From Candidatus Xenobia bacterium (lineage in GTDB: Bacteria; Vulcanimicrobiota; Xenobia; Xenobiales; QWHO01): a DNA stretch of 64,000 bases. The first letter of the stretch is position 1, and every line of letters starts with the position of its first letter. The position numbers and the translations under genes are program-made. The notes below the pieces were generated by a model, which saw nothing but the letters and a program-made list of their open reading frames with translations, searched no databases and was not told the DNA's origin. Of this stretch, positions 35,949-59,721 are shown piece after piece. The stretch lies in NCBI GenBank assembly GCA_045863235.1, contig BTUM01000001.1, positions 128,001 to 192,000 of the forward strand. Reading direction: 5' to 3'.

Positions 35949-36379
35949 CAGCTTCCACTCCCTTCGATGCGGTCATGGACCTTGAGCCGGTTCACGACTG
36001 GCGAGAACCACCCGGACAAATAAGCCCCGGGCGTGCAGACCAGCGAGTCGCCCGGCAAGTAGCTCACCACCCAGGTGGTGCTGCCGTCATCAGGCGACCA
36101 GTGAAAAGGCTCGGCTTCGTCCCGCAGTGCCTTCAGAGCGTTGACCATGTCGAGCGAGGCCACCGGCAGCACCACGTCGACCCGCCCGTGACTGATACGC
36201 GTCCCGAAGGCAATCTCCACTTCCTCGCCCGGATAGTAGCGCGACCCGTCCCACACCGGTACCATCGGCTCTACCTGTGAGAGGAACGGCACCTGCACCT
36301 CGGGCTCGGGGAAGGGGGCGCTGACGCCCACCAGGTCGATTTGCCCGGACGCGTCCTGGCGGCGGAAGTAGTGGGCCAT
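35948..36379 (-). CDS. Post-tape-measure (distal-tail position) protein ending in GSGS
   Basis: 143 aa immediately after the tape measure gene; C-terminus HDRIEGSGS. Confidence 0.65.
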   Translation of the reverse strand: MAHYFRRQDASGQIDLVGVSAPFPEPEVQVPFLSQVEPMVPVWDGSRYYPGEEVEIAFGTRISHGRVDVVLPVASLDMVNALKALRDEAEPFHWSPDDGSTTWVVSYLPGDSLVCTPGAYLSGWFSPVVNRLKVHDRIEGSGS

Positions 36380-39300
36380 CAGGCCAGTCCCGGTATCGCG
36401 GGCGCGTCGCCCATCAGTCGGGCCTGCATCCCGGTGGAGTCGAGAAATCCCTGGATGGTGGCCTTCTCCCCGTCGGGGCCCAGGAGCTCACCCTCCACGA
36501 CCACTCCACCCGACAGAACCACCTCGAGCTTCGGCTTGCCTGCCTGGGCGGCGGCCTCAGCGGCAGCGCGCTGGTTGATTGGGGAGAAACTGGCACCCTT
36601 CGCGGCTGCCCCGACAGCAGCATTGGCCGGGGCGCTGAGGTCGGGAACGGGCAGCTTCGGGGCGGTCAAGTTACCGGCTGAGGTCAGGGCCCCGTCCAGG
36701 GCGCCCGATACCTGGGCGTCGGTCAAATCGCCGGATTTCCCTGTTGCAGCCCTTTTGCTTGACGCGAACCCGGTGAAGGAGTCGGAGGGGGCCCCGAAGT
36801 TTGCAAAGGCCCCGGCCACGTCACCAGGGTCGTACACGCCCCCAGTGGTCTGCTCACGGCTTCCGAGCAACGAGCGCCTCGCCGCCTTCTCGGCGTCCAC
36901 GGTGCTCTGCACGTCGGCCTTTTCCTGGTCGAGCAGCTTCTTCTTTTCGGCCGCCACGAAGCGGGCGATGGTCTCCTCGTCCACGCCGGCCTCGCGGGCC
37001 TTCTGGACGGTCTCGAGGATGGCCCGGACTTTGATCTCTCGCTCCTTGCCCTCGGCTTGGAGGGTGGCGTCCTCGAGTTGCTTCGTCAGGTCCTTGCGCT
37101 TGTCGAGCAGCTCCTTGTTCGCTTCGTCCTCGAGCTTCTTGCGCTCGCCGTGATACCAGGCTTCCACCAGCGCCTTGTCCTGGGCCACCTTCAGATACTC
37201 CGCCTTCTGGCGGTCCAGCTCGGCGATCTTCGCGGCAGTCTCACCCTGAGTGAGTCGGACGACCTCGATGGCCAGGTCGGACTCGAGCTTCTTAGCGGCG
37301 TCAGCGGCCTTCTTGCGCTCGTCGGCCTGCTTCTTGCGCTCGCCCTCGGCCTCTTTGAGCAGCTGGCCCCTCAGCCGAGCGATGTCCAGCTCGAGCTTGC
37401 GCTCCTCGTCTTTCTCGAGCACCAGCTGGGTCTGGCCAAACTTGCGAGACTGGAGCACCTGCTCGAGCAACGCCAGCTCCTGCTGGGTGCTCAGTTCGTG
37501 CAGTGCCCTTTTGCGGGCGACAAAGAACTCGAGGTCCTTTAGCGCGTCCTGAGTGCGCTGCCGTTGCCGTGCGGCCAGGGCGTCGGAGTCGTCCGCTTGC
37601 GCAACCTTGCCCGGAGCCTGGAGCGGCGTTGCATCGCTCTTCGGGCCTGCAATTTCGGGCGTCGGGGTCTTGGCGTTCTCTGTCTTGACCAATGCGTCCA
37701 GGAAGGTGTTGCCGGTGACGAGCCGGCCAACCCCCTTCAGGCCCTCGAAGAATCGGTTCCCGCCCTGCTCACCTCGAGCCAGGTCCTGCTGATTTCCCTG
37801 GCGCAGCAACCCGGCCACCTTCTGAGTGTCCTGCTGCAGTGTCCCCAGCTGGTCCTTTACCAGGCCCGGAAGCTGGTCCATCGCCACAGCGAGAGAATCA
37901 AGCAGGTCGGCCAGGGCGCCCTTGATGACGGCTACCAGGCCCACGAACAGGTCCTGGACTCCGCCGAAGAGCTGCGTAAAGGTCCCTTCCAGCTCGGTGG
38001 CCATGTGGCCCAGCGCCTGGCCAATCTGCCCGATAGCGGTCAGAGCCTTGTCCACCAGGTCGAGCAACCAGGTGCTCAGCATGAGGAACCCCTGGCCCAT
38101 TCCAGCGATGCTCGGGTCGAAATGCTTGCGCTTTAGCAACTCCCAGCGCTCGCCGAACTGCTCATCCCACGCGGCCGCGGCCTGCTTAGTGGCCCCGGCG
38201 GAATCGCTGAAGGTGGCTAAGAGGCCCTCGAACTCCCCCTTGCCCTGCCGAATGCCGCGGACGAAGTCGTTGGCAACTTTCTTGCTAAGCAGGTCCATCG
38301 CCGCGTCCATCTGTGCGGCGGAGCCCTTGCCCTCCCCAAAGGTCCGGAATAGCGCCGCCAGCACGCTGCGGGCCCCATTGACCGGGCGCCCGAACTGGTC
38401 GAGCTCCACGCCTAGGCGCTTCAGCGCTGAGGCCTGCTTGTCGGTTGGTTCGCGCAGGGCACCCATCATATTGGTGAGGCCCTTCAGGGCGGCCTCGGAA
38501 TTGGATACGTCGAACTGGGTCAGCAGGGCCAGCGACTCGTCGAAAGACAGCCCTGCCGCAGCAAATACCCCCTGGCCGCGCTGCAGAGTGGTGCCGAGCT
38601 GATCCACGCTGGCACCACTGGCCCGAGCTGCCACGGTCAGGCGGTCCAGGATGGGTTGGACCTGCTCCGTGCTCAGGCCCCAGGCATCGAGCAGGTCACG
38701 GGTCGTGTTGATGTTCTCTCGGACGTCCGTCTGATGGACCTTGGCAAAGTCCAGGAAGGCCTGCGTGACCGGGACCAGGTCGTTACCGATGTCACGGAAC
38801 TCGCGTCGCATCGCCTGCAACGCGCCACCCAGGGCCTCGATGCTGTTGGTGTTATTTCGGTGCAGGGAGATGAGAGCGCCCTCGAACCGCTTTGCCTCGC
38901 CCGCGCTGGCTCCGGTCTGTGACCGGAATCGAGCCATCGCGTCGTGGAGCTGGGTCCCGAACACCACGGCATCCGCGCCCAACTTGATCAGAGCGGCGCT
39001 CAGCGCGCCCAGGACGGCTGGCCCGGCGAACCGCAGAGCCATCGCAGACACGCGCTCGAGCTGACCTCCAAAAGAGTTCATCTGGGATCGAGCGGCACCC
39101 AGCTGAGAGCTCAGCTGACCCGCGCGCGCCTGAGTATCCTCGAGCGACTTGCGCATCTTGTCGAGCTTGGCGGCGGCCTTCTCCGCGCCAGTACCACCGG
39201 CGGCCACGGCCTTCTCAAGCTTGGCAATCTGCGCCGCCTTTCGATCTGCAACCGCGCGCGTCTTCTCGAGCTGCTGCTCAAGGCGCTTGACCTTCGCGGC

Positions 39301-39393
39301 GGCGCTCTCGGTGGACTTCTCCATGTCTCGGAGTTGGCTGACCGCCTTGCCCGTGAGAACATCGAAGACGGCTTCAAGCCGGAATACTGCCAT
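36379..39393 (-). CDS. Tail tape measure protein
   Basis: 1004-aa Ala/Leu-rich helical protein after the tail chaperones; LKRLGVELDQFG and AMDLL TMP-type segments. Confidence 0.9.
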   Translation of the reverse strand: MAVFRLEAVFDVLTGKAVSQLRDMEKSTESAAAKVKRLEQQLEKTRAVADRKAAQIAKLEKAVAAGGTGAEKAAAKLDKMRKSLEDTQARAGQLSSQLGAARSQMNSFGGQLERVSAMALRFAGPAVLGALSAALIKLGADAVVFGTQLHDAMARFRSQTGASAGEAKRFEGALISLHRNNTNSIEALGGALQAMRREFRDIGNDLVPVTQAFLDFAKVHQTDVRENINTTRDLLDAWGLSTEQVQPILDRLTVAARASGASVDQLGTTLQRGQGVFAAAGLSFDESLALLTQFDVSNSEAALKGLTNMMGALREPTDKQASALKRLGVELDQFGRPVNGARSVLAALFRTFGEGKGSAAQMDAAMDLLSKKVANDFVRGIRQGKGEFEGLLATFSDSAGATKQAAAAWDEQFGERWELLKRKHFDPSIAGMGQGFLMLSTWLLDLVDKALTAIGQIGQALGHMATELEGTFTQLFGGVQDLFVGLVAVIKGALADLLDSLAVAMDQLPGLVKDQLGTLQQDTQKVAGLLRQGNQQDLARGEQGGNRFFEGLKGVGRLVTGNTFLDALVKTENAKTPTPEIAGPKSDATPLQAPGKVAQADDSDALAARQRQRTQDALKDLEFFVARKRALHELSTQQELALLEQVLQSRKFGQTQLVLEKDEERKLELDIARLRGQLLKEAEGERKKQADERKKAADAAKKLESDLAIEVVRLTQGETAAKIAELDRQKAEYLKVAQDKALVEAWYHGERKKLEDEANKELLDKRKDLTKQLEDATLQAEGKEREIKVRAILETVQKAREAGVDEETIARFVAAEKKKLLDQEKADVQSTVDAEKAARRSLLGSREQTTGGVYDPGDVAGAFANFGAPSDSFTGFASSKRAATGKSGDLTDAQVSGALDGALTSAGNLTAPKLPVPDLSAPANAAVGAAAKGASFSPINQRAAAEAAAQAGKPKLEVVLSGGVVVEGELLGPDGEKATIQGFLDSTGMQARLMGDAPAIPGLA

Positions 39394-39783
39394 CGCCGTC
39401 TCCTTTCTCTCTCACGAACAGGCGCCGGTAGCTGGCCATAGCGGCGTGATACTCGGCATTGAGGTCGGCGTCGGGCTCGTCGAGCAAACCCCAGGTGCGC
39501 AGCCAATCACGCTCGCGCTGGATGGGCTTGCGCCAATGAGCGAAGTGTTCCATCCAGGCGCCGAACGCCAACAGACGCCTGGCCTGACGGGCCTCCACGA
39601 GCGCCTGCTGGCGTGCGACACGCAGGCGCTCAAGCAACTCGGCGTAGGGTGTCTCCCTCAGCCAGTCTTGTCGGGTGCCCCCGTAGCGAGACTGGAGAAG
39701 GTCGAGAGCCAGCCAGAGGCCATCTCGCCCAACCTCGCCAGGAGGCCCCGTCCGCTCGCCTCCCCCAGCAGGCCGAAAAAAAA
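39374..39783 (-). CDS. Tail assembly chaperone gpT-like segment (reached by -1 frameshift)
   Basis: Open -1 frame continuing from a T8 run (plus-strand A8, 39776-39783) inside the gpG-like gene to a stop at 39374. Confidence 0.75.
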
Positions 39784-40113
39784 GGCTTGCACATCCGGGT
39801 GCCTGGCCAGCGCACGCCCGCACTCCAACTGCACCGGAAGCGGGAAGAGCTCCGGGTCCTGGAACTCGGGGACGGGGACTTGAAGCACGTCAGCGAGCCA
39901 CTCCGCCAGTAGCTCACGGGTGGCAGGCAATCCCAGGAGGAGCGCGGCCGCGAAGGTCTCGACGGAAGAATCGACCCCCCGCAGCCGCGTGTTCAGCTCG
40001 CTCGAGCCCCGGCCGAGAGCCTCCTGGAGGATCTCAGCCAGGTCGTAGAGGTCGTCATAACCCAGGCGACGGAGCCGGTGGCTCCGCCCCTGGGCGTCAG
40101 TCACTGTCAGCAT
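39658..40113 (-). CDS. Tail assembly chaperone gpG-like
   Basis: 151 aa between the major tail protein and tape measure genes; contains slippery TTT TTT TTC (AFFF). Confidence 0.8.
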   Translation of the reverse strand: MLTVTDAQGRSHRLRRLGYDDLYDLAEILQEALGRGSSELNTRLRGVDSSVETFAAALLLGLPATRELLAEWLADVLQVPVPEFQDPELFPLPVQLECGRALARHPDVQAFFFGLLGEASGRGLLARLGEMASGWLSTFSSLATGAPDKTG

Positions 40114-40790
40114 CAGCTACCAGAGCCAGCGTTCTTGGGCAGGAAGAAGTGGATGGGCTGGTCGAGCGGAGCCGTCAGGGGCGAGCTACCTCGGAGCTCG
40201 AGCTGGAGCCCCACGGCGTTCCCGTCCTGCGTTTTGAACGAGGTCGAGTTGATGGCGATGGCGTTCTCGAGCACGACGATCACCGGCAGCACCACGTCGC
40301 CGTCATTGACCGAGGCGGCGATGGCGATGTTCGGGATGTAGTCGCCCTCTACCACGGCCAGGCGCGGGGTAATCTCGTCGTAGCTGCTCCACTCGTCCTT
40401 GTCGGACGAGCCCAATGCGATCTGGAGGGTATCGGGGTCGCGCACCTCGAGCACGGTCACCACGATGATCCCCTGAGCAGTGTCGCGCTTGTCGAGCCCC
40501 ATCACAGGGCCCCGCAAGCCGTCGATGGGCCCGATCTGACTGATGGGCGCCTCGAAGCGAGCCTCGGCTCCTTCTCTGGTCGCTCCAAACGCCCGCGGGG
40601 CCACCAGGTTGCCGGCGGCGCTGGTCCAGGTGTTGTCCGGATCGATGGCGTCGGCCCAGTCGTTGACGTCGAATCCGGCCAGGCTGCGCAGCTCGGCCAG
40701 GTTGATGTTGACGAACGCGGCGCCAGCGTGCAGCACCATGTTCTGAGGCGACACGGCCCGGAAGCCCGTGATGCCAGTGACGATACTCAT
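40113..40790 (-). CDS. Major tail (tube) protein ending in GSGS
   Basis: 225 aa; FGATREGAE-type motif, canonical position, GAGGAG RBS; C-terminus PKNAGSGS. Confidence 0.8.
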   Translation of the reverse strand: MSIVTGITGFRAVSPQNMVLHAGAAFVNINLAELRSLAGFDVNDWADAIDPDNTWTSAAGNLVAPRAFGATREGAEARFEAPISQIGPIDGLRGPVMGLDKRDTAQGIIVVTVLEVRDPDTLQIALGSSDKDEWSSYDEITPRLAVVEGDYIPNIAIAASVNDGDVVLPVIVVLENAIAINSTSFKTQDGNAVGLQLELRGSSPLTAPLDQPIHFFLPKNAGSGS

Positions 40791-40832
40791 TTCACTGATC
40801 TCCTCTCACTCCACTCCGGCCAGGCCGGTTTT

Positions 40833-41243
40833 CTATCGGTCCTGAACGGATTGCACCAGCGACCAGTCGTACGCCACGACCGAGAACTCCAGGGCAATCC
40901 GGTGAACATTTTGGGCGTCGGTGGCCACCTGGGCGGAGCGCGTGAACCAGTAGTTTGCAGGTGTCCCGGTGGCAAGCATCAGTCGCTGATAAGCCAGCAA
41001 TGCCTTCACACGCTCAGAAATCGCCTCGGCCCTGTCGGCGTTGGGCGAGTAATCCCAGATGTCCAGCTTATGAGAGCCTGAGAGCAACGGTGCTCCCCGC
41101 AATTCCAGCACATGGACGATGTAGGGCATCGGGGCGTTCCGTCGAGCCATCTTGCTGTACAGGTTGACCTGCTCCCCAAACAGCTCGATGAGTTGCTCGT
41201 CCTCTGTCAGCAGCGCATCGAAGGCATCGATGACGATCTTCAC
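40833..41243 (-). CDS. Tail terminator-like protein
   Basis: 136 aa with APMPYIV...KLDIWD pattern; lies before the major tail gene. Confidence 0.65.
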   Translation of the reverse strand: MKIVIDAFDALLTEDEQLIELFGEQVNLYSKMARRNAPMPYIVHVLELRGAPLLSGSHKLDIWDYSPNADRAEAISERVKALLAYQRLMLATGTPANYWFTRSAQVATDAQNVHRIALEFSVVAYDWSLVQSVQDR

Positions 41244-41635
41244 CTGAGCCTGTCGACCTGACTCCAGGGGGCATGGAGAATCCCCTCCACCTGGGTCTCG
41301 ACTTCAGCTAGCGCCTGTTCGAGGAAGGGCCGCTCGTCAGACACGGCCAGAGCAGCCGGGTGGTCTGTGCCCACAGTAACCTCGCCTTGCCCCGCCTTCA
41401 CCCGGAAGCTTTCCTGCAGCTTACCGGTGCGCCGAGCTGGCCACTCACCGGGAGCTGAAGCGGTGTAGGTCTGGTCTGTCCCGGGGATCTTGTAGGTGTG
41501 CCCCGAGCGTGGACCATCCAGTCCCTCTTTGACCGTGGATAGGATAGCTGAGGCCACCTCAGCCTCTTTAGCCCTCGCGTCCGCCTCGAGCGCCTTCTCC
41601 AGAGCCAGGAAGTGGTTCGTGATTTTAACTGCCAC
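41240..41635 (-). CDS. HK97 gp10-like tail completion protein
   Basis: SAPGEWPARRTGKLQES and ERPFLEQA motifs; GTG 41635. Confidence 0.75.
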   Translation of the reverse strand: MAVKITNHFLALEKALEADARAKEAEVASAILSTVKEGLDGPRSGHTYKIPGTDQTYTASAPGEWPARRTGKLQESFRVKAGQGEVTVGTDHPAALAVSDERPFLEQALAEVETQVEGILHAPWSQVDRLR

Positions 41636-41999
41636 TGCCGCCTCCGAGTTCGGGAATTGGAATGCCGTCATCCGTGATGTCGCGAGTCTGGATGATTGTC
41701 CAAGCCGCACGGGCCCCCTTTGGGGAGTAGGTGGCGGTCGTGGGCCGCAGGATTCTCTCGCCCCAGGCGAACAGGGTGCGGTCGTATCTGAACTCTCGCC
41801 GGCCCCTGAAGCGCAGCGTGTGCGTAGGCTCGGCGTCCTGCTTACCATAGGCGGCACGAGCGCTCACGTCCACCTCCAGGACCGACGCCCACCAGGTGCC
41901 CACCAGGTCCCAGTGCTCCTCTTCCCCCGTTGCGACGCGCACGCTGGTGAGGGCATACTCAGATACCCGCTGGTCCAGGGCCGCACAGGAGACACTCAC
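41625..41999 (-). CDS. Head closure (head-tail adaptor) protein ending in GSGS
   Basis: TGEEEHW...WWASV...THTLRFRG pattern; GTG overlaps the connector stop; C-terminus ELGGGSGS. Confidence 0.7.
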   Translation of the reverse strand: MSVSCAALDQRVSEYALTSVRVATGEEEHWDLVGTWWASVLEVDVSARAAYGKQDAEPTHTLRFRGRREFRYDRTLFAWGERILRPTTATYSPKGARAAWTIIQTRDITDDGIPIPELGGGSGS

Positions 42000-42331
42000 A
42001 GTCGGGGCTTCCAGCCTCGAGTCAGACCTGAGTAATCGCGCTGGGACCAATTCACAAATCCGAGCTGGTTCACTTGCTCGATCTGGAGACCGTCCGGCCG
42101 GTGCTCGTAGTCTCTGGATACCTGTTGCAGTAGCCAACGCTCGACCCAATTGGGGATCGGAAGGTCTTCCCCGTCGGCGTTCTGGAACGCGTTGCCCATG
42201 TAGGCGTCGGCGTCTTCTTTCGCGGCGTCCAAGAGTAGCTGGAGGAGCGCGTCCTCGTCGCTGGATTCTACCTTTGCGTAGAGCTTGACCGTCTCGAGAG
42301 TTACCGTGCTCCGGTCTACAACGGCTCCCAT
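41996..42331 (-). CDS. Head-tail connector (gp6/gp15-like)
   Basis: VTLETVKLYAKVESSDEDALLQLLLDAAKE...YEHR motif. Confidence 0.85.
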   Translation of the reverse strand: MGAVVDRSTVTLETVKLYAKVESSDEDALLQLLLDAAKEDADAYMGNAFQNADGEDLPIPNWVERWLLQQVSRDYEHRPDGLQIEQVNQLGFVNWSQRDYSGLTRGWKPRL

Positions 42332-43668
42332 CAGGCGCCACCGTGCATGCGAGTCAGATGCCCGCGCAGTGATGCGGCGCTCGGGAATTGCCTGTCACAC
42401 TGCCCACAGGAAAAGCCTTCCTTGACCTCGGCCGGAGCCACCACTTTCGCTTCGGTCGTTTCAAGAGGAGCGATCCTCGCCAGCCCGCGATTCTCAAACC
42501 ATCTCACGCGCTGAGGCAAGTCATAACCTGTGTAGATTCGTTTCCACCCACCGCGCGAGAGTACACAGTTTGGATAGAACTCGGCATTCTTTGGAATGCG
42601 ACCTTCCGGCGCAACAAACGTCTGGTTTGCGATCATTCGGACTGAGGCCGGATTCTGCGGTTTCTCGTGTTCAGGCACAGTCAAGACCTCCAGGATGGCG
42701 TTCACAGCCCGCACGGTAGCGTGTCTGTCGGTGTACTTGTAGACCCGGGCCACAGCCCGTTTCCTGGCTTCCTGCTGGGTTTCAAAGTCCTCGAGAGCCA
42801 GGGCGACTCCGTCTACCAAGTGGTCCGGGTTAGCAACCTGGACGCCCACCGTAGCGCATTCCCAGAAGCGCAAGCCGTGGTGAATGTTTCGTCGGTAGTG
42901 AGGGCTGTTCAGCACCACTACCGGTCTCCCGGCCGAGGCGAATTCGAACAATGTCGATGAATTGTCACAGATGTAGCAGTCGGCTCGTTCGAGCACCTCG
43001 TCAAAATCCGCCAGCACCTCGACTCCGGCGGCCTGATAATGCGGCCGCAACTGCTCAATGATTCGCGGGTGGCCATGGCCGATGAGTGTCCAACGGGGGT
43101 CTGTCGCCAGATCAGAGAGGGCGCCGCGAAAGTGCTCCCAGGCACTTCTGGTTTCCGGCACGATCCGGCAGTCCCAGTGAAAGGACATTGCAACCACGGG
43201 GCGCTGGGGGCGTTTCCAGGGAGGAGCCGGGTGCCAGCGGTCGAGCTTTGGGCAACCCACGACCGCCACCGGTATCCCCGGATGTGCCCGCCTGTTACGC
43301 TCGGCCGGGTGGTCCCCGGGCACGAGGAAGAGTCGGACCCCCAGACGCCCCTCGCCGCCGGCGTAGCTCGAGTGTGCACTCGAGTAGCTCTGGCCGGCAC
43401 CGTGCTCGGAGAAAATGGTTGGATGGTGGGCCTGCTGAGCCACCTTGAGGTCGCGAAAGCTGCTGACCAGGACTGAGCTTGCCGGCGTCAGCACTTTCCC
43501 GACGACGCTCGATCGCTCAAATGCTACGGACTCGATGCCCTTGCTTTTGGCGTACTCGACCAGGTGCCCTGGGACCAGGAAGACTCCCTTCCTTTCGACA
43601 GGGAAGGCATTCCAGATCGGCCTCAGGTGGTCAAGAAAATGCCGCTCGGAAGCCACGCAATCCAGCAT
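42331..43668 (-). CDS. CDP-glycerol glycerophosphotransferase (TagF)-like GT-B protein fused to a C-terminal C2H2 zinc-finger domain
   Basis: VGCPKLD, HGHPR and ADCYICDNSSTLFEFASAGRPVV motifs; ends CGQCDRQFPSAASLRGHLTRMH. Confidence 0.7.
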   Translation of the reverse strand: MLDCVASERHFLDHLRPIWNAFPVERKGVFLVPGHLVEYAKSKGIESVAFERSSVVGKVLTPASSVLVSSFRDLKVAQQAHHPTIFSEHGAGQSYSSAHSSYAGGEGRLGVRLFLVPGDHPAERNRRAHPGIPVAVVGCPKLDRWHPAPPWKRPQRPVVAMSFHWDCRIVPETRSAWEHFRGALSDLATDPRWTLIGHGHPRIIEQLRPHYQAAGVEVLADFDEVLERADCYICDNSSTLFEFASAGRPVVVLNSPHYRRNIHHGLRFWECATVGVQVANPDHLVDGVALALEDFETQQEARKRAVARVYKYTDRHATVRAVNAILEVLTVPEHEKPQNPASVRMIANQTFVAPEGRIPKNAEFYPNCVLSRGGWKRIYTGYDLPQRVRWFENRGLARIAPLETTEAKVVAPAEVKEGFSCGQCDRQFPSAASLRGHLTRMHGGA

Positions 43669-45194
43669 CAGTAGTTGTTTCCGGCTCGCTCCGCCCCGAT
43701 ATGAGTGACCAGTTCCTCGCCGTGCCCCCAGTAGGCCATCCGATTGGCTGGGTCGCGGTTCAGCACGTCGGTGTAGCCTCGCTCGCTGGATTTCACATCA
43801 GGCCAGGGCGTCTCACAAAGGGAGCGCCTGAAGAGACTCGGGTTGCACGTCCAGTAGAGACGATGTTCCAGCCAGCGCGCACCGTCCACCTCGCACTTGG
43901 TGTAGGCCTCAGGATGCTCGGCGATAATGCTGCCGGCAGCCAGCTCGCGAGGATAGTAGGGGTGTCGCAGGAGCGCGAGCTGGCTCAGATGTGGCTGGTC
44001 CTGCAGAATGTCGATCATCCGGTCGAGATCGATGGGCACGTCAAACGTGAAGTCGTCCTCGGTCTGGAACACGTAACCCGAATTGCAGCGCCGTCGCAGG
44101 TAGCTCCACATCGCTCGCATCGAACCCGTGTAGCCGAGCCGCTCGGCCGGGCCGACCACGTAGAACCCGAATCTCCCGAATTGCTCCATGAGCCACTGCT
44201 TGTAGGCTGCGTCTCCCGAATCGTCGTAGAACACGCGGCGCACGATGGGGCCCCGCACTTGCTCGACCAGGCTGGGGACGGCCCGTGCGATGTATTCGCG
44301 TCGCCTATCCGTGTGCACCACTACTGTCACGCCACGGTTGACTGCCTTCCAATCGTCGACCAGTTCCCGCAGGGTGGGCCACTTGCCCGTCCACTCGGAG
44401 CCGCCGAGCTGGGCTTCGGCAGCTGTGCTCTCGCGCTCGAGGTTGGCGATGTCTCTGGCCAGGTCTTCCTTGGGCGGCCAGGTGTCCTCGCGCTCCGTCT
44501 GACCCATGTCCCGGCGCAGGGCCACCATGTAGCGCCGGCCCAAGATCGAGTTGCGGAGGAAATCGACCTGGTAGCGCCCGTTCCGCTTTCCGCGCTCCGG
44601 TGTCAGCGGGTGCCACAGGTGGAAGACATCGCCATCGATCCGCTCGTGTCCGTGTAGGCCGCAGACCGCAGACTGGAACGCCATGTCCTCCCAGCCCCAT
44701 CCACGAAAACGCTCGTCGAAGCCGCCCAAGTCATCCCAGACCGGCCGCGGCACGACGAAGCAGCAGCTCCAACTGAGCGGGTTCGTTTTCTCCACCAGAT
44801 GGTCAAGGTCAGCGCCGTCCAGGCCCTGGGCGAGCAAGCCGGCCTGGTCGCGCACCAGGCGATCGGTCGAGGCTCGGTCCAACCCCCGCCAGCGTCGGAA
44901 GGCCCAGGTGACCCGCCCGGTCGTCCGAGCCCGCTTGAGCGCTGCCTCCAGCTGACCGACCGGAATGAAGATGTCGCTGTCGATGATGACTGCGAAGTGC
45001 CAGCGCCCGTCCCTGTCCGCCGCCCGAGCCGCCCGATTGATCGCAGCTGAGCGGTTGAAGGGCCCGCGGTCATGGTGTCCCTCGTAGACCCTGAGCTTCG
45101 GGTGAAGGAGCGCCCAGCGCTTCTTGAGGCGTTCCCAAATCAAGTCGCGCTCAGGGATGCCCGCGCGCCGCGGGCAGAGGATAACAATCCGCAT
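43668..45194 (-). CDS. Bifunctional glycosyltransferase (two GT-A domains)
   Basis: Domain 1: FNRSAAIN, IIDSD (DxD), GGFDERFRGWGWED, FHLWH. Domain 2: YDDSGD, FQTEDDF, WTCNPSL, THIG. Confidence 0.85.
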   Translation of the reverse strand: MRIVILCPRRAGIPERDLIWERLKKRWALLHPKLRVYEGHHDRGPFNRSAAINRAARAADRDGRWHFAVIIDSDIFIPVGQLEAALKRARTTGRVTWAFRRWRGLDRASTDRLVRDQAGLLAQGLDGADLDHLVEKTNPLSWSCCFVVPRPVWDDLGGFDERFRGWGWEDMAFQSAVCGLHGHERIDGDVFHLWHPLTPERGKRNGRYQVDFLRNSILGRRYMVALRRDMGQTEREDTWPPKEDLARDIANLERESTAAEAQLGGSEWTGKWPTLRELVDDWKAVNRGVTVVVHTDRRREYIARAVPSLVEQVRGPIVRRVFYDDSGDAAYKQWLMEQFGRFGFYVVGPAERLGYTGSMRAMWSYLRRRCNSGYVFQTEDDFTFDVPIDLDRMIDILQDQPHLSQLALLRHPYYPRELAAGSIIAEHPEAYTKCEVDGARWLEHRLYWTCNPSLFRRSLCETPWPDVKSSERGYTDVLNRDPANRMAYWGHGEELVTHIGAERAGNNY

Positions 45195-45940
45195 TAGACC
45201 TCCCGGAAGGCTCGCAGGATCTCGAGCAGGGCCTCCTGCTTGGCCCGCACTTGGGCCTGGTCGGCCAAGCGCCAGCCCGGACGGATAGTCTCCCCGAACG
45301 AACTGGCGTAGTCTCGAAACTTGAACCCGTCTCCGAGCACGCCGGGGTGAGGGTCCCACCAGTTCTCGATTCCCAGTGAATCTGCCAGGATGATCCCGTG
45401 CAGACTCGAGGACACGATTCGCCGACAGCGGGCCGCGGCGGTCACCACCTGGTCGACGCCAGCGAGGACGTCGATCTCAAGCACGGTCTCGCGTCGGCCG
45501 GGGTCGACCTCGATCGAGCGCACTTTGTAGTCCCCAGGGTTTCCGCGATGGTCGACGTAGTGACGGATGAATCCGACGTCGACATCCGGCCTGGGCCGCT
45601 CGTGGAGCAACAGGCCGGCCAGGAGCCCAGGGTCGGCCAGCACAGGTGGAGGATTCTCCGGGCTCAGGCGCACCCGCTCGAGCGTAAGCCTCCCACGCAG
45701 GGCGAGCACACGGGAGCAGGTCAGGTCCCGGCGGGATTCATCGAACATCAGCCCGCTGCCCAGCACGGTGCCGGCCCACCCGTCAGGGACCGCCTCCAGC
45801 ACCGACCCCACAGCCACCAGGTGCGCGTCTGGCACCTCGGCCCATTCTGGCTCGATCCCCGCAATGCGAGAAAGGAGCACCCTGGTAAGGGCGTCGCCAA
45901 AGTTGGCTCCTCCAGCGTACTGGTCCCAGAAAGCTCTCAT
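45194..45940 (-). CDS. Polysaccharide pyruvyl transferase (ExoV-like)
   Basis: NFGDAL, AVGSVL, LALRGRLT, ADPGLL, SSSLHGIILADSLGI and FKFRDY motifs. Confidence 0.85.
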   Translation of the reverse strand: MRAFWDQYAGGANFGDALTRVLLSRIAGIEPEWAEVPDAHLVAVGSVLEAVPDGWAGTVLGSGLMFDESRRDLTCSRVLALRGRLTLERVRLSPENPPPVLADPGLLAGLLLHERPRPDVDVGFIRHYVDHRGNPGDYKVRSIEVDPGRRETVLEIDVLAGVDQVVTAAARCRRIVSSSLHGIILADSLGIENWWDPHPGVLGDGFKFRDYASSFGETIRPGWRLADQAQVRAKQEALLEILRAFREV

Positions 45941-45960
45941 GGTCTCAACATTCCCATCTC

Positions 45961-45990
45961 AAAATGGGGCCCCCGGTTGGAGGCCCCACG
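45961..45990 (-). terminator. Hairpin/terminator after the major capsid gene
   Basis: Minus strand reads TGGGGCCTCC-AACC-GGGGGCCCCA-TTTT. Confidence 0.7.
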
Positions 45991-46005
45991 TTCAAAGGGG
46001 ACCGA

Positions 46006-47256
46006 TTATGAGCCGGAGCCCGTGTAGCTGCCGGTGATGATGAGTTCGGGAATCTGGTGGGCGATGTATACCCCCTCGTCACCGAACAACAGCAACTTGC
46101 CAGACAGCGCAAAATCGCTGTGCTGGTTGAAGATCTGCACGCTCACCTCTTCCAGGTCATAGAAGGTTGAGGACTGGTAGAGGTCGCCAGTCACGAACTG
46201 GCCCTGGTCGATTGCGCTGGTGGGAAACACAGGAACTTGCCACATGACCTTCTGGCCATTGACCTGGACCTGAGCCCAGATGTAGCGATCCTGGCTGTCC
46301 TTCTGGAGCTCCATCTCCTCCCAGTCCTCGTGATTCACGATGTAGACGGTGGGGAGGGTGGGCAGTTCCACCAGATGAAGCATCGTCTGGGCGCGGCGCA
46401 GCGCGTCGATCTTGGTGTCGCCAGCCTGGTGGCGGTTGTAGGTCTGTCGCCCGCTGACCTGGGTGAAACCCTTCAGGCTCGCAGAAGACCCGGCGATCAG
46501 GAGCGTGTCCTCCTTGTGGTAGATGCCGTTGACCATGCGGTTCTCGGTGAAGTTCTCCACGGTGGGCATGTCGCGGGCCTGCTCCTTGGTGAGGACCAGG
46601 CCGTGGCTGACCTGAGTCGAGGCCACCGAAGACTTGTCGAAGCTGATCTCGGAGAGTGCGGCCTCGGCTCCCTCAGCACGCTCGGCTGCCGCGTTGGTGT
46701 AGCCCGTCTCTACCACGAACTCAAGCTGAGCTTTCGTCGTCCGCACGACATTCAGGACGTCGCGCAAGTGCATTTGCCGCAAACGAGGGGGGGCGTAGAT
46801 GCGCTGGTCGAGCATGGTCGAAAGGACGTCGCGGGCGTCGCCTGGGTCGAGCGCCTTCTTTTCGGGCCAGATCCGGCCAAGCTTGACCGGCTCCATCGAA
46901 ACAGCTGACTTGTTCTCCAGGAACTTGCGGTACGTCTCCGACTCGGTGAGTCGCTTTCCGATTGACTTCGTCTGGCCGTCTCCGTGGACCACGGTGCGGT
47001 TGAGCTTGGCCTCGATGTCATCCAGGCGGCTCTTCTGCTCGACAGCAGTTTCATGGGCCCTTTTGATCTCGCTCTGGATATCCTCGGCGGTCTTGTTGTA
47101 GCGTTCCTCGAGCGCGGCGATCGACTTGCTGGTCGAGCTGGTCGTGCCCCCCAGCTTCTTGATCTCCTCGTTCTGCTTTTTCAGCTCCTCCTTGAGGGCT
47201 GTCTGCACGGACTTGAACTCGCTGCCCAGCTGGGCCAGTGCGTCGTTCGTCTTCAC
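46006..47256 (-). CDS. Major capsid protein (HK97 fold, N-terminal delta-like coiled coil) ending in GSGS
   Basis: Follows portal and protease; AAERAEGAE and VNHEDWEEMELQKDSQDRYIW motifs; AAAGGAG RBS; C-terminus TGSYTGSGS. Confidence 0.9.
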   Translation of the reverse strand: MKTNDALAQLGSEFKSVQTALKEELKKQNEEIKKLGGTTSSTSKSIAALEERYNKTAEDIQSEIKRAHETAVEQKSRLDDIEAKLNRTVVHGDGQTKSIGKRLTESETYRKFLENKSAVSMEPVKLGRIWPEKKALDPGDARDVLSTMLDQRIYAPPRLRQMHLRDVLNVVRTTKAQLEFVVETGYTNAAAERAEGAEAALSEISFDKSSVASTQVSHGLVLTKEQARDMPTVENFTENRMVNGIYHKEDTLLIAGSSASLKGFTQVSGRQTYNRHQAGDTKIDALRRAQTMLHLVELPTLPTVYIVNHEDWEEMELQKDSQDRYIWAQVQVNGQKVMWQVPVFPTSAIDQGQFVTGDLYQSSTFYDLEEVSVQIFNQHSDFALSGKLLLFGDEGVYIAHQIPELIITGSYTGSGS

Positions 47257-47289
47257 TGCTGTTCTCCTTTCTTACCCAGCCCGGGCATC

Positions 47290-47319
47290 AAAAAGACCAC
47301 CGGTTTCCGGTGGTCAAAA
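47290..47319 (-). terminator. Terminator-like hairpin between protease and capsid genes
   Basis: Minus strand reads GACCACCGG-AAA-CCGGTGGTC-TTTTT. Confidence 0.6.
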
Positions 47320-47348
47320 CTCTTGCTTGTGGACTTTTCGTGGGATGC

Positions 47349-48320
47349 CTACTCGGCGTCGGACTCGCTGGCCATGTTGCGGATCTGCACGACACACTCC
47401 TCGAGAATCACGGCAACCTCTTCGAGGTCCTTCCGCTTCTCGTCGGCGTCGGAGGACCAGCGAGCCTGCCAGATGGCGTCGGATGCGCCGCGCAGTCGCG
47501 CAGAGATGTCCATCGCGCGGGGACTTCCCTTCCTTTCCCGGCCTCGAGCACCGCTCTTTTCGCCGTCCACTTCCTCGTCGTCGGACGACGAATCGCTCCC
47601 CTCATCCGCCTCGTCGACATCCTCATCGGTGTCAATCGGGCTCTCGTCGTCTTTGGAGGAGAGCGACTTGCGAAAGCTTTTCATATCGCGCAGCAAGTTC
47701 GTCAGCCCCTTCTCGTCATCGAGGTCCACGTCTTCATCCTCCTCTTCATCGTCCGAGCAGGCTACGGAGCGCAGCTCGGTGAGGGCCCCGATGGCCCGGT
47801 CAAGTTTGGTGATACTCGCGGCCGACAGCACGCGCCCCGCTTTTACGCCGGTTATGGCCGCCAGTTCGTTGGCTGGGAAGTCCACCGGGCCGAATTCGTA
47901 GACCTTAAGCTTGATGAGCTCGCGCCGGCCCGTGTCGGGGCTCCTCTGGCTCTCTTCCACGTCGTAAGAGAAGCTCATGGCGTCCAGTGTCCCCGAAGAG
48001 CACATCGCCAGGACGTCATTCCCCAGCGAAGTCTCGTCGATTCGAGCCTCGATATACAGCCCACGCTCGTCCTCGCGCATGACCGTGGGAATGCCGATGA
48101 TGAACGTGTGGTTGTAGAAGAGCTTAATCTTGCTTCGAAGCTGTCCATCTACCTGGTTGGGGCCTCGCTGAGCAATGGTCTCAGCGAAGGCACCTTTACG
48201 GATGGTGTCTCCCACCTGGTCGGGGTCCCAGGTCGCAGCGTAGCCGGTGATGGTGCGCTGTGCTACGTCTGCCTTCACGCCGACAAAGGGAAAGGATTTC
48301 CGTGTGGTCTGCAACTTCAC
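47349..48320 (-). CDS. HK97-family prohead protease with acidic C-terminal extension
   Basis: ITGYAATW, DTIRKGAF, LFYNH, EDERGL, MSFSY and EFGPVDFPANE motifs. Confidence 0.9.
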   Translation of the reverse strand: MKLQTTRKSFPFVGVKADVAQRTITGYAATWDPDQVGDTIRKGAFAETIAQRGPNQVDGQLRSKIKLFYNHTFIIGIPTVMREDERGLYIEARIDETSLGNDVLAMCSSGTLDAMSFSYDVEESQRSPDTGRRELIKLKVYEFGPVDFPANELAAITGVKAGRVLSAASITKLDRAIGALTELRSVACSDDEEEDEDVDLDDEKGLTNLLRDMKSFRKSLSSKDDESPIDTDEDVDEADEGSDSSSDDEEVDGEKSGARGRERKGSPRAMDISARLRGASDAIWQARWSSDADEKRKDLEEVAVILEECVVQIRNMASESDAE

Positions 48321-49747
48321 TGGGTTCTCCTTTCCAGGCGCCCCAGGCGCTTTTCGAGTTGCTGGATCAGGATCATCAGGCGCTTGCTCCCATCCTGGAG
48401 ACTCGGGTCCACCAGAGCCGCGCCCTCATTGGCCAGCGGGATCATGTTGCTCGGGGCCCAGCTGACATCACCGCCCTCGATGGCCGGCAGACCTAGACCC
48501 AGGTAGCGATTCACGACGTTGATTGGATAGCCCATCATGTGCAGCTTGTAGCCAGCATCGATCTTGGAAATAAGCTGGGGTAGGAGGGCCGGAACGTTCG
48601 CGAAGTCAAAGCTCAACCGGTAATTCTCGCCCCAGCGGGGCCAGATCCAGGCTCGGTTGTAAGCATCAGACAGAATACCTGCCAGCGGGATGACCGAGTC
48701 TTCATAAAAGCTCTTATGATACTCGGCCAGGTTGGCGAGGGTGGCATTCTCGCTGATGCCTACGATCGGGGGCGGGACTCGGAAGACCGCGCAGATTTCC
48801 TCGCGGGTCAGTTTGCGACCCTCGACGTAGTCCATCTCCACCGGGGATCGGCTGGTCTCCGTCCAAGTGGTCCCTGAGCTCAGCAGTAACAGATTGTAGG
48901 CTGATTCCGGCCCGTGAATCTCGCTGGCCAGGAGTTCCTTCAGTTCAGCGTGTTGCTCTGGCTCGAGCGTCTGAGGAGTAGTAAGCACACCGCCAGCGAT
49001 GCCTCGGTTCTCGAGCATCGAGAAATTCCACTGAATGGCAGCCACGTCCGTATCAACGACAAGTGACGCAGCTCGCAACGGACTGAACCCCCAGTAAGGG
49101 TTCCCCGGGTCGTGGAACTGACAGTGGACCAGGTCTCGCGGCCGCACGAGGAAAGTGTTCCGGTCATTCGTGGCAGCGTATCCGGGGAAGACAGACATTC
49201 CCGTCCCCCACCGAGTGACCTTGTACAGGTCAATCAAGTCCAGGGTGCCCGGCACAGGGTAGCACTTGTCAGGCGTTATTGGCCAGAGCTCGAGAGTGTT
49301 GGCCCTCCCTGAATTCGTCGAATCAATGATGGTCGTCAGGAAGTTGCCCGTCAGGAACAAGTCCTGCAGGTTGCGTTGCACCAGGTCTGACCGGGAGAAG
49401 AACTTGTTGGGGCGCGAGAACCGACCTTCCGCCGGGTGGTCGGCCATGTCTTCCCACTGCTGGCCGTTCCATTGCTGGACTTTGTGCGGTACCACTCCGA
49501 GGGCCCAAACATAGGCCTGGATACAAGCGTAAACCCACGGATTGCTTTTTAGGCCCTCTGCTATAGCCTTCTCTGCGGTCCAATCGGTCTGGCCGCGATA
49601 GGGTCGCCCGTAAACGTAGATCGGCTGGACCTGGGCGAGACGGACAGACTTCTTATCGGCGGCCGAGACGACCGAGGCCGCGCCCTCGGAGGTGAGGGTT
49701 GAGCCCGCGATCCAGGCGCCCACGCGTTGGCGGAATCGGTTTAGCAA
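48317..49747 (-). CDS. Phage portal protein (HK97 family)
   Basis: NPWVYACI, LFLTGN, YWGFSPL and REEICAVFRVPPPIVG motifs. Confidence 0.9.
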   Translation of the reverse strand: MLNRFRQRVGAWIAGSTLTSEGAASVVSAADKKSVRLAQVQPIYVYGRPYRGQTDWTAEKAIAEGLKSNPWVYACIQAYVWALGVVPHKVQQWNGQQWEDMADHPAEGRFSRPNKFFSRSDLVQRNLQDLFLTGNFLTTIIDSTNSGRANTLELWPITPDKCYPVPGTLDLIDLYKVTRWGTGMSVFPGYAATNDRNTFLVRPRDLVHCQFHDPGNPYWGFSPLRAASLVVDTDVAAIQWNFSMLENRGIAGGVLTTPQTLEPEQHAELKELLASEIHGPESAYNLLLLSSGTTWTETSRSPVEMDYVEGRKLTREEICAVFRVPPPIVGISENATLANLAEYHKSFYEDSVIPLAGILSDAYNRAWIWPRWGENYRLSFDFANVPALLPQLISKIDAGYKLHMMGYPINVVNRYLGLGLPAIEGGDVSWAPSNMIPLANEGAALVDPSLQDGSKRLMILIQQLEKRLGRLERRTQ

Positions 49748-51320
49748 CGGGCTGGTCCTCCTTGAGCGCGTTGGGCTCGGTGTCCGCCGGGGACGGTGGC
49801 TTGATGGTGGTCACGAGGAGAGACACGTCCACCTGCTCACGCTCCTCAAAGTAAGCCTGGGCCTGACTCGAGGCGTCCACCTGGTCATCAGCCGCTCCCT
49901 TCGGGAAACTCGAATGCTCCGAGATCCACTCACGCACCCAGGGGTAACCATCGGAAGAGGGCAAGAAGATGTTGCCAGCTCGGGCTCGAGGCGTCCAGGC
50001 GTAAGCCCGCAAAACCTTGGAGCTGCCTTGCGGGTTGATCGGAGTTAACCCGGACAGCTCTGACTTCAGAACTCGTAAGACCTCTGGGCCATTGGCTTTC
50101 TGTTCCACCAATATCGGCCGGGCTTTGGGCCAGCGTTTAGATAGCAGCCTCACGGCCTCGATAGTACCAGTGAGGTCGAGCCGCTCTCGAATCTGATCGA
50201 GTAGGAATCGCCTGGGTCCAAGCCGGCCCCAGACCTGTCCGACTACCCAGGACGTTCCCTTCTTTAGACCTCCGCCCGAGCAGTCCCACGATTGAATCAG
50301 GTCGTTGAACCTGACCTCGCCGCTGTAAACCCAGCCCTCAGCCTCCTGGTCATAAGCGACGGGAAGGTCAGATAGGGCCCAGCGGCTCCACCAGGCAGGG
50401 TCGAACATGCCGCCCTTTCCTGCAACTGGCCATCCTTGCAGCAGCGCCCAAAAGAACTGCTCTCCCTGCTCGACCCGGACCTCGCTCAGGATGTCTGCGG
50501 GATGGAGTTCCGGACAAAGCGCCTCGCCTGGCTGACGTCCGATTGGGTCCGGAAATACCTCCTCGTAGCCGTCTGGAACCTCGTCCTCCGCGAGCGCAAT
50601 GGCCGGTAGGGAGACTTTCTCCCAGATCGCCCCGCCCTGTCTCTCGAGCGCACGCAGGTGGCCCGCCAGATCGTCAAGATGCCAGCGAGTCATGATCAGG
50701 ATGATTGCGCCGTTCTTCTGGACTCGCGTCCGAAGCGTCGTGCCGTAGAAGTCTTTCTGCTTTTCCCGGACCGTCTCTGAGAGGGCCTCTTCCTGGTTCT
50801 TTACCGGGTCGTCGATAACCAGCAAGTCAGCCGACTTACCGGTAATTGACCCACCCATCCCGGCAGTCCGCATACCGCCACGGTGGCCCTCAATTGACCA
50901 GTCATGTGCCGCCCGGTTCCGTCGGCTCACTCGAATCCCGAAAAGCCAGCCCCACTCCTCGAGGATGTCACGGACCTTCCGCCCGTAGCTGGCCGCGTAT
51001 TCAGCCTCGTAGCTGACCAGGATGATTCGGGTGTCGGGAAACATTCCCAACACCCAGGCCAGAAAGTAGACGCTGGCAAAGACGCTCTTACCATGCTGGG
51101 GGGGCATCGTGATCATCAGTCGCCTGATAATCCACCCCGCGGCCACGCGCTGGCCAGCCGCAACTAGGCGTTTCTTCGCTCCGGGCATCCCAGCTGCAAC
51201 CCGCATCAGAAATGTCAGCAGGTGGAGAAGATGCCGATATGGCCTCCACTCGCCCCGGCTCACATGCCAGGCAAAGTGCGCCGGCGAAATGCGAGCCCAC
51301 TCGTTGGCTGGAAATCTCAC
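49653..51320 (-). CDS. Terminase large subunit
   Basis: MPPQHGKS (Walker A), LLVIDDPVK (Walker B), IMTRWHLDDLAG, SWDC and DDQVDA motifs. Confidence 0.93.
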   Translation of the reverse strand: MRFPANEWARISPAHFAWHVSRGEWRPYRHLLHLLTFLMRVAAGMPGAKKRLVAAGQRVAAGWIIRRLMITMPPQHGKSVFASVYFLAWVLGMFPDTRIILVSYEAEYAASYGRKVRDILEEWGWLFGIRVSRRNRAAHDWSIEGHRGGMRTAGMGGSITGKSADLLVIDDPVKNQEEALSETVREKQKDFYGTTLRTRVQKNGAIILIMTRWHLDDLAGHLRALERQGGAIWEKVSLPAIALAEDEVPDGYEEVFPDPIGRQPGEALCPELHPADILSEVRVEQGEQFFWALLQGWPVAGKGGMFDPAWWSRWALSDLPVAYDQEAEGWVYSGEVRFNDLIQSWDCSGGGLKKGTSWVVGQVWGRLGPRRFLLDQIRERLDLTGTIEAVRLLSKRWPKARPILVEQKANGPEVLRVLKSELSGLTPINPQGSSKVLRAYAWTPRARAGNIFLPSSDGYPWVREWISEHSSFPKGAADDQVDASSQAQAYFEEREQVDVSLLVTTIKPPSPADTEPNALKEDQPVAKPIPPTRGRLDRGLNPHLRGRGLGRLGRR

Positions 51321-51781
51321 GAGTCTGGCCAGTCGTCGCTCTCCTGTTGGTCAGACTCGGTCGAGAGCCGCAACATCTCGGCCATCAGTTCCAGCACCGC
51401 CGCGTCCGAGAGAGCCCGCTCGGGGAGCCGGAGATCCCGGAACCCCTGGCCAGGTTCATCCGCCTGCACTGCGAACGCCTGAGCCATTGGCCAAAGCTCC
51501 TTCGCAAGCCGCATGATCGCAATGATCTCTTTTGGCTCCGCCTGCTCACTCGAGAGCACGCGCTGGCCAGCCGCGAGTGCCCCCTGCACGAATTGCCGGG
51601 CCTGGTCTATCTCCGTCCCCAGTTCCGCCCGAGCCTCCACCACCAAAACCACCGGGGATGAAGGCTGGAGAGGGACGGCCACCTTCTTGCCTCTAACTTT
51701 AGCCAGGCCAGCCTCGGCACGGCGCTTGCGCATCAACTCCCGCTGGTAGGCTCTCCGCTTCTCCGGGTCCTTGTGCGCCAT
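51317..51781 (-). CDS. Putative terminase small subunit
   Basis: 154 aa with basic N-terminus, overlapping the TerL start; assigned by position only. Confidence 0.5.
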   Translation of the reverse strand: MAHKDPEKRRAYQRELMRKRRAEAGLAKVRGKKVAVPLQPSSPVVLVVEARAELGTEIDQARQFVQGALAAGQRVLSSEQAEPKEIIAIMRLAKELWPMAQAFAVQADEPGQGFRDLRLPERALSDAAVLELMAEMLRLSTESDQQESDDWPDS

Positions 51782-59695: not shown

Positions 59696-59721
59696 GGCAG
59701 GGGTTCCTTTCTTGGGGTTGC

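Follow-up and report, generated by a model that had tools for sequence, protein, structure and literature searches.

The 64,000-nt stretch analysed here (the window; part of contig BTUM01000001.1 from Candidatus Xenobia bacterium, assembly GCA_045863235.1) carries a siphovirus-type prophage on its minus strand, from ~26 kb to beyond 63 kb. In this prophage, genes for three predicted enzymes, a short pyruvyltransferase-like protein, a double GT-A glycosyltransferase (GT) and a TagF-like GT-B enzyme, lie between the major capsid gene and the gene for head-tail adaptor Ad1, and the capsid protein and three other products of the structural module end in the same four residues, GSGS. The late-expressed enzymes probably (we would put this at about 0.75) build an O-linked modification on these C-terminal Ser tags of virion proteins and, judged from sequence, the locus is a variant of the Che8/Corndog system of mycobacteriophages with a different enzyme set and a different host.

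Among the 591 stop-to-stop open reading frames (orfs) of 60 aa or more in the window, exactly 4 have GSGS at the C-terminus, all in the structural module: the HK97-type major capsid protein (416 aa; 46006-47256, minus strand, as for all prophage genes mentioned below; ...ITGSYTGSGS, tag encoded at 46009-46020), a 124-aa protein in the head-closure position (41625-41999; ...ELGGGSGS), the 225-aa major tail (tube) protein (40113-40790; ...PKNAGSGS) and a 143-aa protein encoded directly after the tape measure gene (35948-36379; ...DRIEGSGS). Only 0.069 such ends are expected from the frequency of GSGS in the same translations (Poisson P 9e-7). The capsid was identified by matches to Phage_capsid (1.2e-22) and phrog_10 (1.5e-33) and the tube protein by a match to phrog_885 (1.4e-23), while neither the head-closure-position protein, placed by position (its GTG start overlaps the Ad1 stop), nor the 143-aa protein, placed by position and tag, has a match among Pfam or PHROG profiles. 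No tag is present on the other 20 of the 24 late-region proteins, among them portal, terminase, adaptor and tape measure. A homologue search with the capsid returned 7 proteins only, the closest of which end in GSGSGS and GSGS, and the homologue of the head-closure-position protein in L043 (phmmer 3e-17) likewise ends in GSGS. L043 and L127, both from one IMG/VR contig, represent the closest whole-phage relative (capsid phmmer 1e-66); this contig has five GS-tagged proteins, in positions as in the window phage, and two Glyphos_transf genes (349 and 538 aa) in place of the three enzymes of the window.

Relatives of the TagF-like enzyme are encoded on 234 stretches of IMG/VR, from which 80 loci were kept. 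Within these, 138/2387 orfs on the enzyme strand (5.8%) end in GS vs 25/2521 (1.0%) on the opposite strand, the internal GS dipeptide frequency being 0.68%; corresponding counts for named genomes are 34/788 and 5/741. At least one GS-ended same-strand orf is present in 63 of the 80 loci and at least two in 36. PHROG assigns the 138 orfs to major head (48), major tail (18), connector (15) and fibre (1) proteins and to PHROGs of unknown function (7), with 49 unmatched; none is non-structural, and all those with a functional family annotation are virion proteins. The major head proteins belong to phrog_10, 1328, 267, 283, 2263 and 1623 and include protease-capsid fusions, the major tail proteins fall into six PHROGs and the connector class comprises adaptors, head-closure proteins or terminators. 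That the tag is shared by several distinct PHROG families speaks for a recognition tail acquired convergently. In four capsid clusters encoded near the enzyme, every one of the 40 members ends in Ser (31 GS, 6 AS, 2 TS, 1 PS). The TagF-like gene has the GS-ended capsid gene upstream in 45 of 48 cases, 38 of them within 3 kb (15 adjacent, at 43-142 nt, and 23 more) and 7 farther away, leaving 3 capsid genes downstream.

Enzyme content varies among the same 80 loci: a GT-A of the type of Che8 gp109 is encoded in 28, one of the phrog_3047 type in 11 and a pyruvyltransferase-like protein in 5. The three-gene set of the window recurs, in different order, in L062 and L027, and several loci have no GT recognised by hidden Markov model (HMM) searches (e.g. 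L005, with the order capsid, Methyltransf_24, TagF-like, adaptor). Contigs carrying relatives are binned (bins as printed) to Patescibacteria, Bacteroidota, Actinomycetota, Chloroflexota, Bacillota, Acidobacteriota, Verrucomicrobiota and a Natronococcus archaeon. The last, L099 (contig of a Natronococcus sp. metagenome-assembled genome), encodes a TagF-like relative with 44% identity and four same-strand GS-ended orfs (341, 247, 156 and 351 aa); should the binning be correct, tailed viruses of archaea may also use the tag system. Among deposited phage records, Virus Rctr41k (L001; KX853513) alone has a TagF-like relative (40% identity), which is annotated as hypothetical. Here the TagF-like gene lies one gene downstream of a protease-capsid fusion (...VAEGS), after a gene for a 213-aa hypothetical protein, and the major tail and post-tape-measure proteins end in ...DDLPGS and ...EVEGS, respectively.

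As a control, 80 loci were picked by portal similarity regardless of enzymes, with a 4-sequence portal alignment (a 14-sequence alignment was too divergent). A capsid HMM found the capsid gene in 42 of these loci, 30 of which have at least 3 kb downstream; all loci were scanned with HMMs for the TagF-like protein, Methyltransf_24, both GT-A halves and the pyruvyltransferase-like protein, and 29 orfs with Pfam. An enzyme cassette was identified between capsid and adaptor in 7/7 loci with a GS-ended capsid vs 1/23 others (Fisher P 3.9e-6, or 2.4e-5 with near-identical loci collapsed), a comparison subject to the caveat that such enzymes may, as in Che8, be encoded at a distance from the capsid gene. 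Among the seven, L034 and L127 have a TagF-like gene, L151, L159, L168 and L169 have methyltransferases plus a GT4-family GT-B enzyme and L171 has a methyltransferase and an unassigned 356-aa protein. In 22 of the 23 loci without a GS-ended capsid the capsid gene is followed directly by small neck genes. The exception, L147, carries Methyltransf_24 and GT4 genes, with capsid and tube proteins ending in ...TAES and ...AGES. Compared with untagged capsids, tagged ones have a 3-5 residue extension after a conserved G-T-F motif (...GTFSGSGS* vs ...KGTFN*). Capsids with otherwise similar tails end in ...FDxAPS or ...FDxAPA (L155, L157, L158 and L200 vs L142, L144 and L152); the contigs with Ser-ended versions are short.

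In mycobacteriophages Che8 (gp108-110), Corndog (gp35-38) and Myrna, phage-encoded GTs glycosylate capsid and tail-tube subunits, with glycans at the C-termini (Freeman et al. 2023, as cited in PMC12619734, PMC11600133 and PMC12363180). PMC12363180 calls the gp110/gp38-type GT essential for capsid glycosylation, and virion glycosylation is reported to weaken antibody recognition of mycobacteriophages (as cited in PMC11600133 and PMC12363180). The relevant proteins end in Ser in both Che8 (capsid gp6, ...KTGS; tail tube gp11, ...SDGS) and Corndog (capsid, ...LVGS; tail tube, ...KGDS). The same is true of GT-bearing prophiGD91-2 (capsid, ...SSGS; tail tube, ...EEAS) and of the tail tube of Syleon (...AAGS), also GT-bearing. 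None of five capsid and tail-tube C-termini examined from L5, Bxb1 and TM4 (structural regions only) ends in Ser, and to our knowledge these phages lack GT genes. Corndog gp35-38 (a methyltransferase and three GTs) are encoded between the portal and capsid genes, so embedding of such a cassette in the head module has precedent. An initial annotation of the window, made from its letters and translations, had highlighted this embedding, which is not unusual given Corndog and the 45/48 GS-ended capsid genes found upstream of the enzyme gene. Its placement of the three genes between major capsid and head-tail connector agrees with gene order and with Pfam/PHROG matches, and a Pfam check of the three orfs returned PS_pyruv_trans, Glycos_transf_2 and Glyphos_transf, all above cut-off with modest scores.

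The double GT-A fusion (508 aa; 43668-45194) matches Glycos_transf_2 at 1.2e-5 (25.8 bits, cut-off 23.3), its N half corresponding to phrog_1721 (1.4e-17) and its C half to phrog_3047 (1e-19). DxD-type motifs can be read from the translation in both halves (IIDSDIF, with DSD, and QTEDDFT, with EDD, respectively). The N half is related to Che8 gp109 (BLASTP 7e-14, 27% identity) and Corndog gp37 (2e-12), both also phrog_1721, and tblastn of the entire protein identified 222 phage records, 203 of them Mycobacterium phages.

The TagF-like enzyme (445 aa; 42331-43668) comprises a core (residues 1-335) and a 110-residue C-terminal extension. The match to Glyphos_transf (PF04464; 8.9e-9, 35.2 bits, cut-off 22.1) spans profile positions 227-366 of 367 only, and most listed homologues carry PF04464 above the gathering score. 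A model of the core (pLDDT 91.7) has a GT-B fold, with chains of the adhesin GT SdgB among its Foldseek matches (E about 6e-10, TMq 0.44). Invariant H200 (in GHGHP) aligns with H433 of TarL, described in PMC10901376 as the leaving-group member of a pair of essential histidines of which H300 is the base. TarL (E 0.077) and Cps3D (E 1.1), both weak, are the only PDB sequence matches to the trimmed alignment, and the untrimmed alignment gave no match in the PDB profile search. The word-indexed search identified 1186 relatives at E<=1e-5, while in an HMM scan of 1.84 billion representatives 1191 clusters passed E<=1e-30 and relaxing the threshold to 1e-3 raised this to just 2325, which marks the TagF-like family as discrete and well separated from weaker matches. 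These relatives were found in viral contigs by the alignment-based scan, a single-protein scan having found none. Complex prediction for the full-length enzyme with capsid residues 150-416 gave a score of 0.00, taken as evidence neither way.

The C-terminus of the TagF-like enzyme carries a C2H2 zinc-finger-like motif (C-x2-C-x12-H-x4-H; 42343-42414), read from the translation, that matches zf-C2H2_4 at 0.0046, below cut-off. The pattern recurs in TagF-like homologues P0010, P0024 and P0038, and also on the GT4 enzyme of L147 (9701-11086; PF00096 1.5e-4, below the 25.2-bit cut-off). Two different capsid-adjacent GT-B enzymes, TagF-like and GT4, thus carry a motif that is unusual for prokaryotic or phage enzymes and that may be a shared docking module.

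The pyruvyltransferase-like protein (248 aa; 45194-45940) has 238 homologues and matches PS_pyruv_trans (PF04230) at 2.1e-6 (28.3 bits, cut-off 25.3); its homologue in L023 spans profile positions 97-273 of 280 (6e-11). Its structure model (pLDDT 95.3) has Pvg1p (5ax7; Z 9.9, 196 residues aligned) as one of three top-tied structural matches, and a PDB profile search with the family alignment gave chance matches only. R82, H181 and K207 are invariant in the family, in the same order as R148, H308 and K328 of CsaB; H181 aligns to the His of the RLH motif, the equivalence of R82 and K207 being based on order and spacing only. According to PMC10435577, these three CsaB residues matter by mutagenesis and R306 is assigned to phosphoenolpyruvate (PEP) binding by docking. 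Elsewhere in the window, a full-length CsaB-like pyruvyltransferase of the host (6095-7333, minus strand; PS_pyruv_trans 1e-33) adjoins ftsE, ftsX and a gene for a PcsB-like M23 peptidase, and given this enzyme the host cell probably makes pyruvylated polymers.

One-base overlaps join the cassette genes to each other (TAATG, 45196-45192; TGATG, 43670-43666) and to Ad1, the start of which overlaps the TagF-like stop (TGATG, 42333-42329); the double GT starts at ATG 45194 and not at the upstream GTG of a 563-aa orf. The chaining through overlaps at 45194, 43668 and 42331 described in the initial annotation therefore holds among the enzymes and into the adaptor gene, but does not reach the capsid gene, from which the cassette is separated by a 65-nt spacer containing a hairpin. 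The claim that these are late morphogenesis genes and not a separately promoted moron fits with these overlaps and with the lack of any sigma-70-like site at 39000-51860 in a consensus scan not calibrated for this organism, and the stated absence of obvious transmembrane segments was borne out (highest 19-residue Kyte-Doolittle mean in the three enzymes, 1.34). Gtr-type O-antigen conversion was dropped as an explanation, the cassette containing no membrane protein or flippase. The spacer hairpin is GC-rich and followed by AUUUU; a fold of 81 nt around it (45935-46015) gives -39.6 kcal/mol (z -3.83; 0/200 shuffles as stable). The consensus terminator scan made no terminator call at this hairpin, which is possibly an attenuator or mRNA-stabilising element. 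A second strong hairpin lies upstream of the capsid gene (47295-47315, minus strand; 9-bp stem followed by T5), and bracketing of this gene by hairpins suggests a separately stabilised or attenuated capsid transcript.

These features can be assembled into a possible pathway. The three enzymes, predicted to be cytoplasmic, would be made together with the late morphogenesis proteins. They would place an O-linked modification on serines of the GSGS tag, a short, exposed C-terminal extension that the phage appears to have appended to the capsid, head-closure-position, tail tube and post-tape-measure proteins. The GT-B enzyme (TagF-like here, GT4 in sister phages) would read the tag and add the first group; it is the candidate for this initiating step because it is the common denominator, several TagF-like loci having no recognised GT and sister phages having only GT4 in this position. 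The two GT-A domains, one of the Che8 gp109 type, may then extend the first group and the pyruvyltransferase-like enzyme may cap a sugar, with decoration by methyltransferases in other phages. Such a coat would alter the particle surface, e.g. by shielding or by changing charge and adsorption. Addition of sugar, polyol phosphate and pyruvate ketal is plausible but unproven.

A broader and more tentative proposal is that C-terminal [Gly/Ala]-Ser is a portable ‘decorate me’ tag, placed on unrelated virion proteins by tailed phages from many bacterial phyla and probably by haloarchaeal viruses, and read by a capsid-adjacent GT-B enzyme (TagF-like or GT4, sometimes C2H2-tailed). Where this enzyme is TagF-like, it would first attach a polyol or sugar phosphate through a phosphodiester bond, and in the window phage glycosylation and pyruvylation would follow, yielding an anionic coat. 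If true, a phosphodiester-linked group on the tag serine would amount to a teichoic-acid-like modification of protein of a kind so far undescribed for virus particles. Literature searches, with thin coverage of subscription journals, identified no paper on a C-terminal-serine acceptor on phage capsids, on a phage glycerophosphotransferase near capsid genes or on a pyruvyltransferase acting on virions.

Several observations weigh against enzymatic decoration of the Ser tags or against parts of the proposed pathway. The host is uncultured. The gp110/gp38-type GT (phrog_854) is absent from the window by PHROG scan, phmmer and BLASTP (E 0.78 and 0.52), so the initiating step must differ from that of Che8; among the TagF-like and portal-related loci this type is found in L041 only. 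The capsid of GT-bearing Syleon ends in ...DTSA, three control loci without a cassette have capsids ending in ...AS, and 17 of the 80 TagF-like loci, many of them on short contigs, have no GS-ended orf. Orfs were called crudely, from first start to stop and without a gene model, and the loci are related to each other, so that P values overstate independence. The strong hairpin at 45964-45989 parts the cassette from the capsid gene. For the pyruvyltransferase-like protein, the weak PS_pyruv_trans match covers only part of the profile (positions 200-271 of 280) and the SSLH of the protein aligns to RLH of the CsaB-like protein of the host, invariant Ser179 replacing the Arg. In fold comparison with the TagF-like model, TagF (3l7i, Z 20.9), Cps3D (20.4) and TarL (20.1) tie with UDP-GlcNAc 2-epimerase (21.4) and NeuC (20.3), and only one of the two catalytic histidines can be aligned, H14 and H89 being invariant candidates for the base. 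Finally, no TagD match (TIGR01518) was found in the 97.6%-complete host genome, in which the prophage TagF-like gene is the only Glyphos_transf match, making CDP-glycerol a doubtful donor. Of the earlier proposal of a Che8-like virion-modifying cassette adding pyruvate ketal and glycerol phosphate, the first part gains from the GSGS tags, the gp109/gp37 homology and the link between tags and cassettes across lineages, while the chemistry is weakened by the host lacking TagD and by Ser in place of the Arg of RLH.

The same gaps leave room for a simpler chemistry on the same proteins, which we consider possible and somewhat doubtful: the TagF-like protein would simply transfer a sugar or sugar phosphate from a universal nucleotide sugar, the pyruvyltransferase-like protein would transfer no pyruvate, and the coat would be an ordinary oligosaccharide, possibly methyl-free, that lacks polyol phosphate and ketal. 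Along with the missing TagD and Ser179, this would fit with GT4 filling the same slot in sister phages and with top structural neighbours that include UDP-GlcNAc-binding 2-epimerases and, among Foldseek matches, Ser-glycosylating SdgB, while the spread of the family over contigs assigned to Patescibacteria, Chloroflexota, Actinomycetota, Bacillota and a haloarchaeon points to a donor that is universal. It is harder to reconcile with Glyphos_transf scores above gathering for the window protein and nearly all listed homologues, with PDB sequence matches, albeit weak, to TarL and a TagF-like capsule polymerase only, with alignment of H200 to the leaving-group histidine of TarL, and with invariant R82, H181 and K207 ordered as the three critical residues of CsaB.

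Two explanations dispense with protein modification. That the cassette is a lysogenic-conversion moron, which would prevent superinfection by altering a surface polysaccharide of the host (O-antigen, capsule or secondary cell-wall polymer), with the GSGS tails unrelated, is improbable. Both GT halves do belong to the PHROG class ‘moron, auxiliary metabolic gene and host takeover’, the TagF-like and pyruvyltransferase families normally act on cell-envelope polymers (according to PMC10901376 and PMC10435577), the pyruvyltransferase of the host at 6095-7333 makes pyruvylated polymers in the cell probable and a hairpin precedes the cassette. Against this, the genes lie inside the late operon, with overlaps into the adaptor gene and no promoter-like site found, they encode no membrane segment, flippase or lipid-carrier enzyme, and a moron leaves unexplained why Ser tags on unrelated virion families travel with cassettes. 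Hypermodification of phage DNA rather than protein is more improbable still: phage GTs commonly glucosylate DNA (PMC12619734), and gene 151 of SP-15, TagF-like with adjoining GTs, has a role in DNA base hypermodification that is proposed but not shown (PMC5977210), but no hydroxymethylase or base-modification gene was seen in the window, where the replication module has two DNA methylases only. The cassette lies in the head-neck module and not in a nucleotide-metabolism module, a TagF-like gene follows 15/48 GS-ended capsid genes at 43-142 nt, and modification of DNA would not account for the tag pattern either. Decoration of the tagged virion proteins remains the preferred reading.

Within the GC-rich (60-70%) window, the late genes of the prophage run in the order TerL, portal, S78 protease, capsid, the three enzymes, Ad1, head-closure position, tail completion, major tail, chaperones, tape measure and distal tail. 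The upstream head module (47349-51320) consists of genes for TerL (49653-51320), portal (48317-49747) and S78 prohead protease (47349-48320), identified by Pfam/PHROG and all untagged. Ad1 (111 aa, untagged; 41996-42331) matches Phage_connect_1 (8e-8) and phrog_40 (4e-13), the tail completion gene lies at 40833-41243 and the gene for the untagged tape measure protein at 36379-39393. If their first start codons are used, two long tail orfs (28530-31220 and 30653-33328, minus strand) overlap by ~570 nt, and the downstream member has a tail-fibre PHROG match. The replication module (52128-63294, minus strand) encodes a D5_N/DUF5906 primase-helicase (897 aa), an HNH protein, a DnaN-like sliding clamp (445 aa), an N6/N4 DNA methylase and a C5 cytosine methylase.

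Chemical proof of virion glycosylation exists for a few mycobacteriophages only, and this locus and its relatives suggest far wider occurrence, with the TagF-like family comprising 1191 clusters and contigs assigned to at least eight phyla. They also suggest that such modification might be predicted from sequence alone, where capsid and tube proteins have a Ser-terminal tag and a transferase is encoded beside the capsid gene, and that the enzyme sets (GT-A, GT4, TagF-like, methyl- and pyruvyl-transferases) are interchangeable. A four-residue tag with a small enzyme set could serve as a coating tool for phage particles or other proteins, and the proposed anionic groups would, if true, be new virus surface chemistry.

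Compared with Che8 and Corndog, the window phage shares, at sequence level only, a phrog_1721 GT-A and Ser-ended capsid and tube proteins, and has its cassette inside the head module as in Corndog. Unlike these phages, it has neither a phrog_854 GT nor a methyltransferase, carries a TagF-like GT-B enzyme with a zinc-finger tail, a phrog_3047 GT-A and a pyruvyltransferase-like enzyme, has four tagged proteins vs the two reported for mycobacteriophages, and infects a host that is not an actinobacterium. The TagF-like enzyme resembles TagF, TarL and capsule polymerases (PF04464; 3l7i, 8va1, 8qoy) in its GT-B fold (Z ~20-21 over ~300 residues), and its HP and D-x-S-S...E-x-A motifs align with those of TarL. 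Unlike TagF and TarL, it lacks the N-terminal polymerase domain and a hydrophobic segment, belongs to a discrete phage-associated family encoded beside capsid genes, occurs in a host without a TagD match and has as its acceptor probably a protein tail rather than a lipid-linked polymer. The pyruvyltransferase-like protein belongs to the same Pfam family as CsaB of Paenibacillus alvei and Pvg1p of S. pombe (5ax7) and contains N-x-G-D and L-H-G motifs, but is ~100-150 residues shorter and has an invariant Ser where CsaB has R306, the Arg of RLH; no counterpart of CsaB R207, the Arg of the catalytic loop, was identified. SdgB and GtfA, the GT-B O-glycosyltransferases of serine-rich or Ser-Asp repeat adhesins, offer a parallel to the proposed reaction, being cytoplasmic GT-B enzymes with serines of flexible low-complexity tails as substrate; they have no sequence-family relationship to the phage enzyme, and the putative substrates here are four-residue C-terminal tags rather than long repeats.

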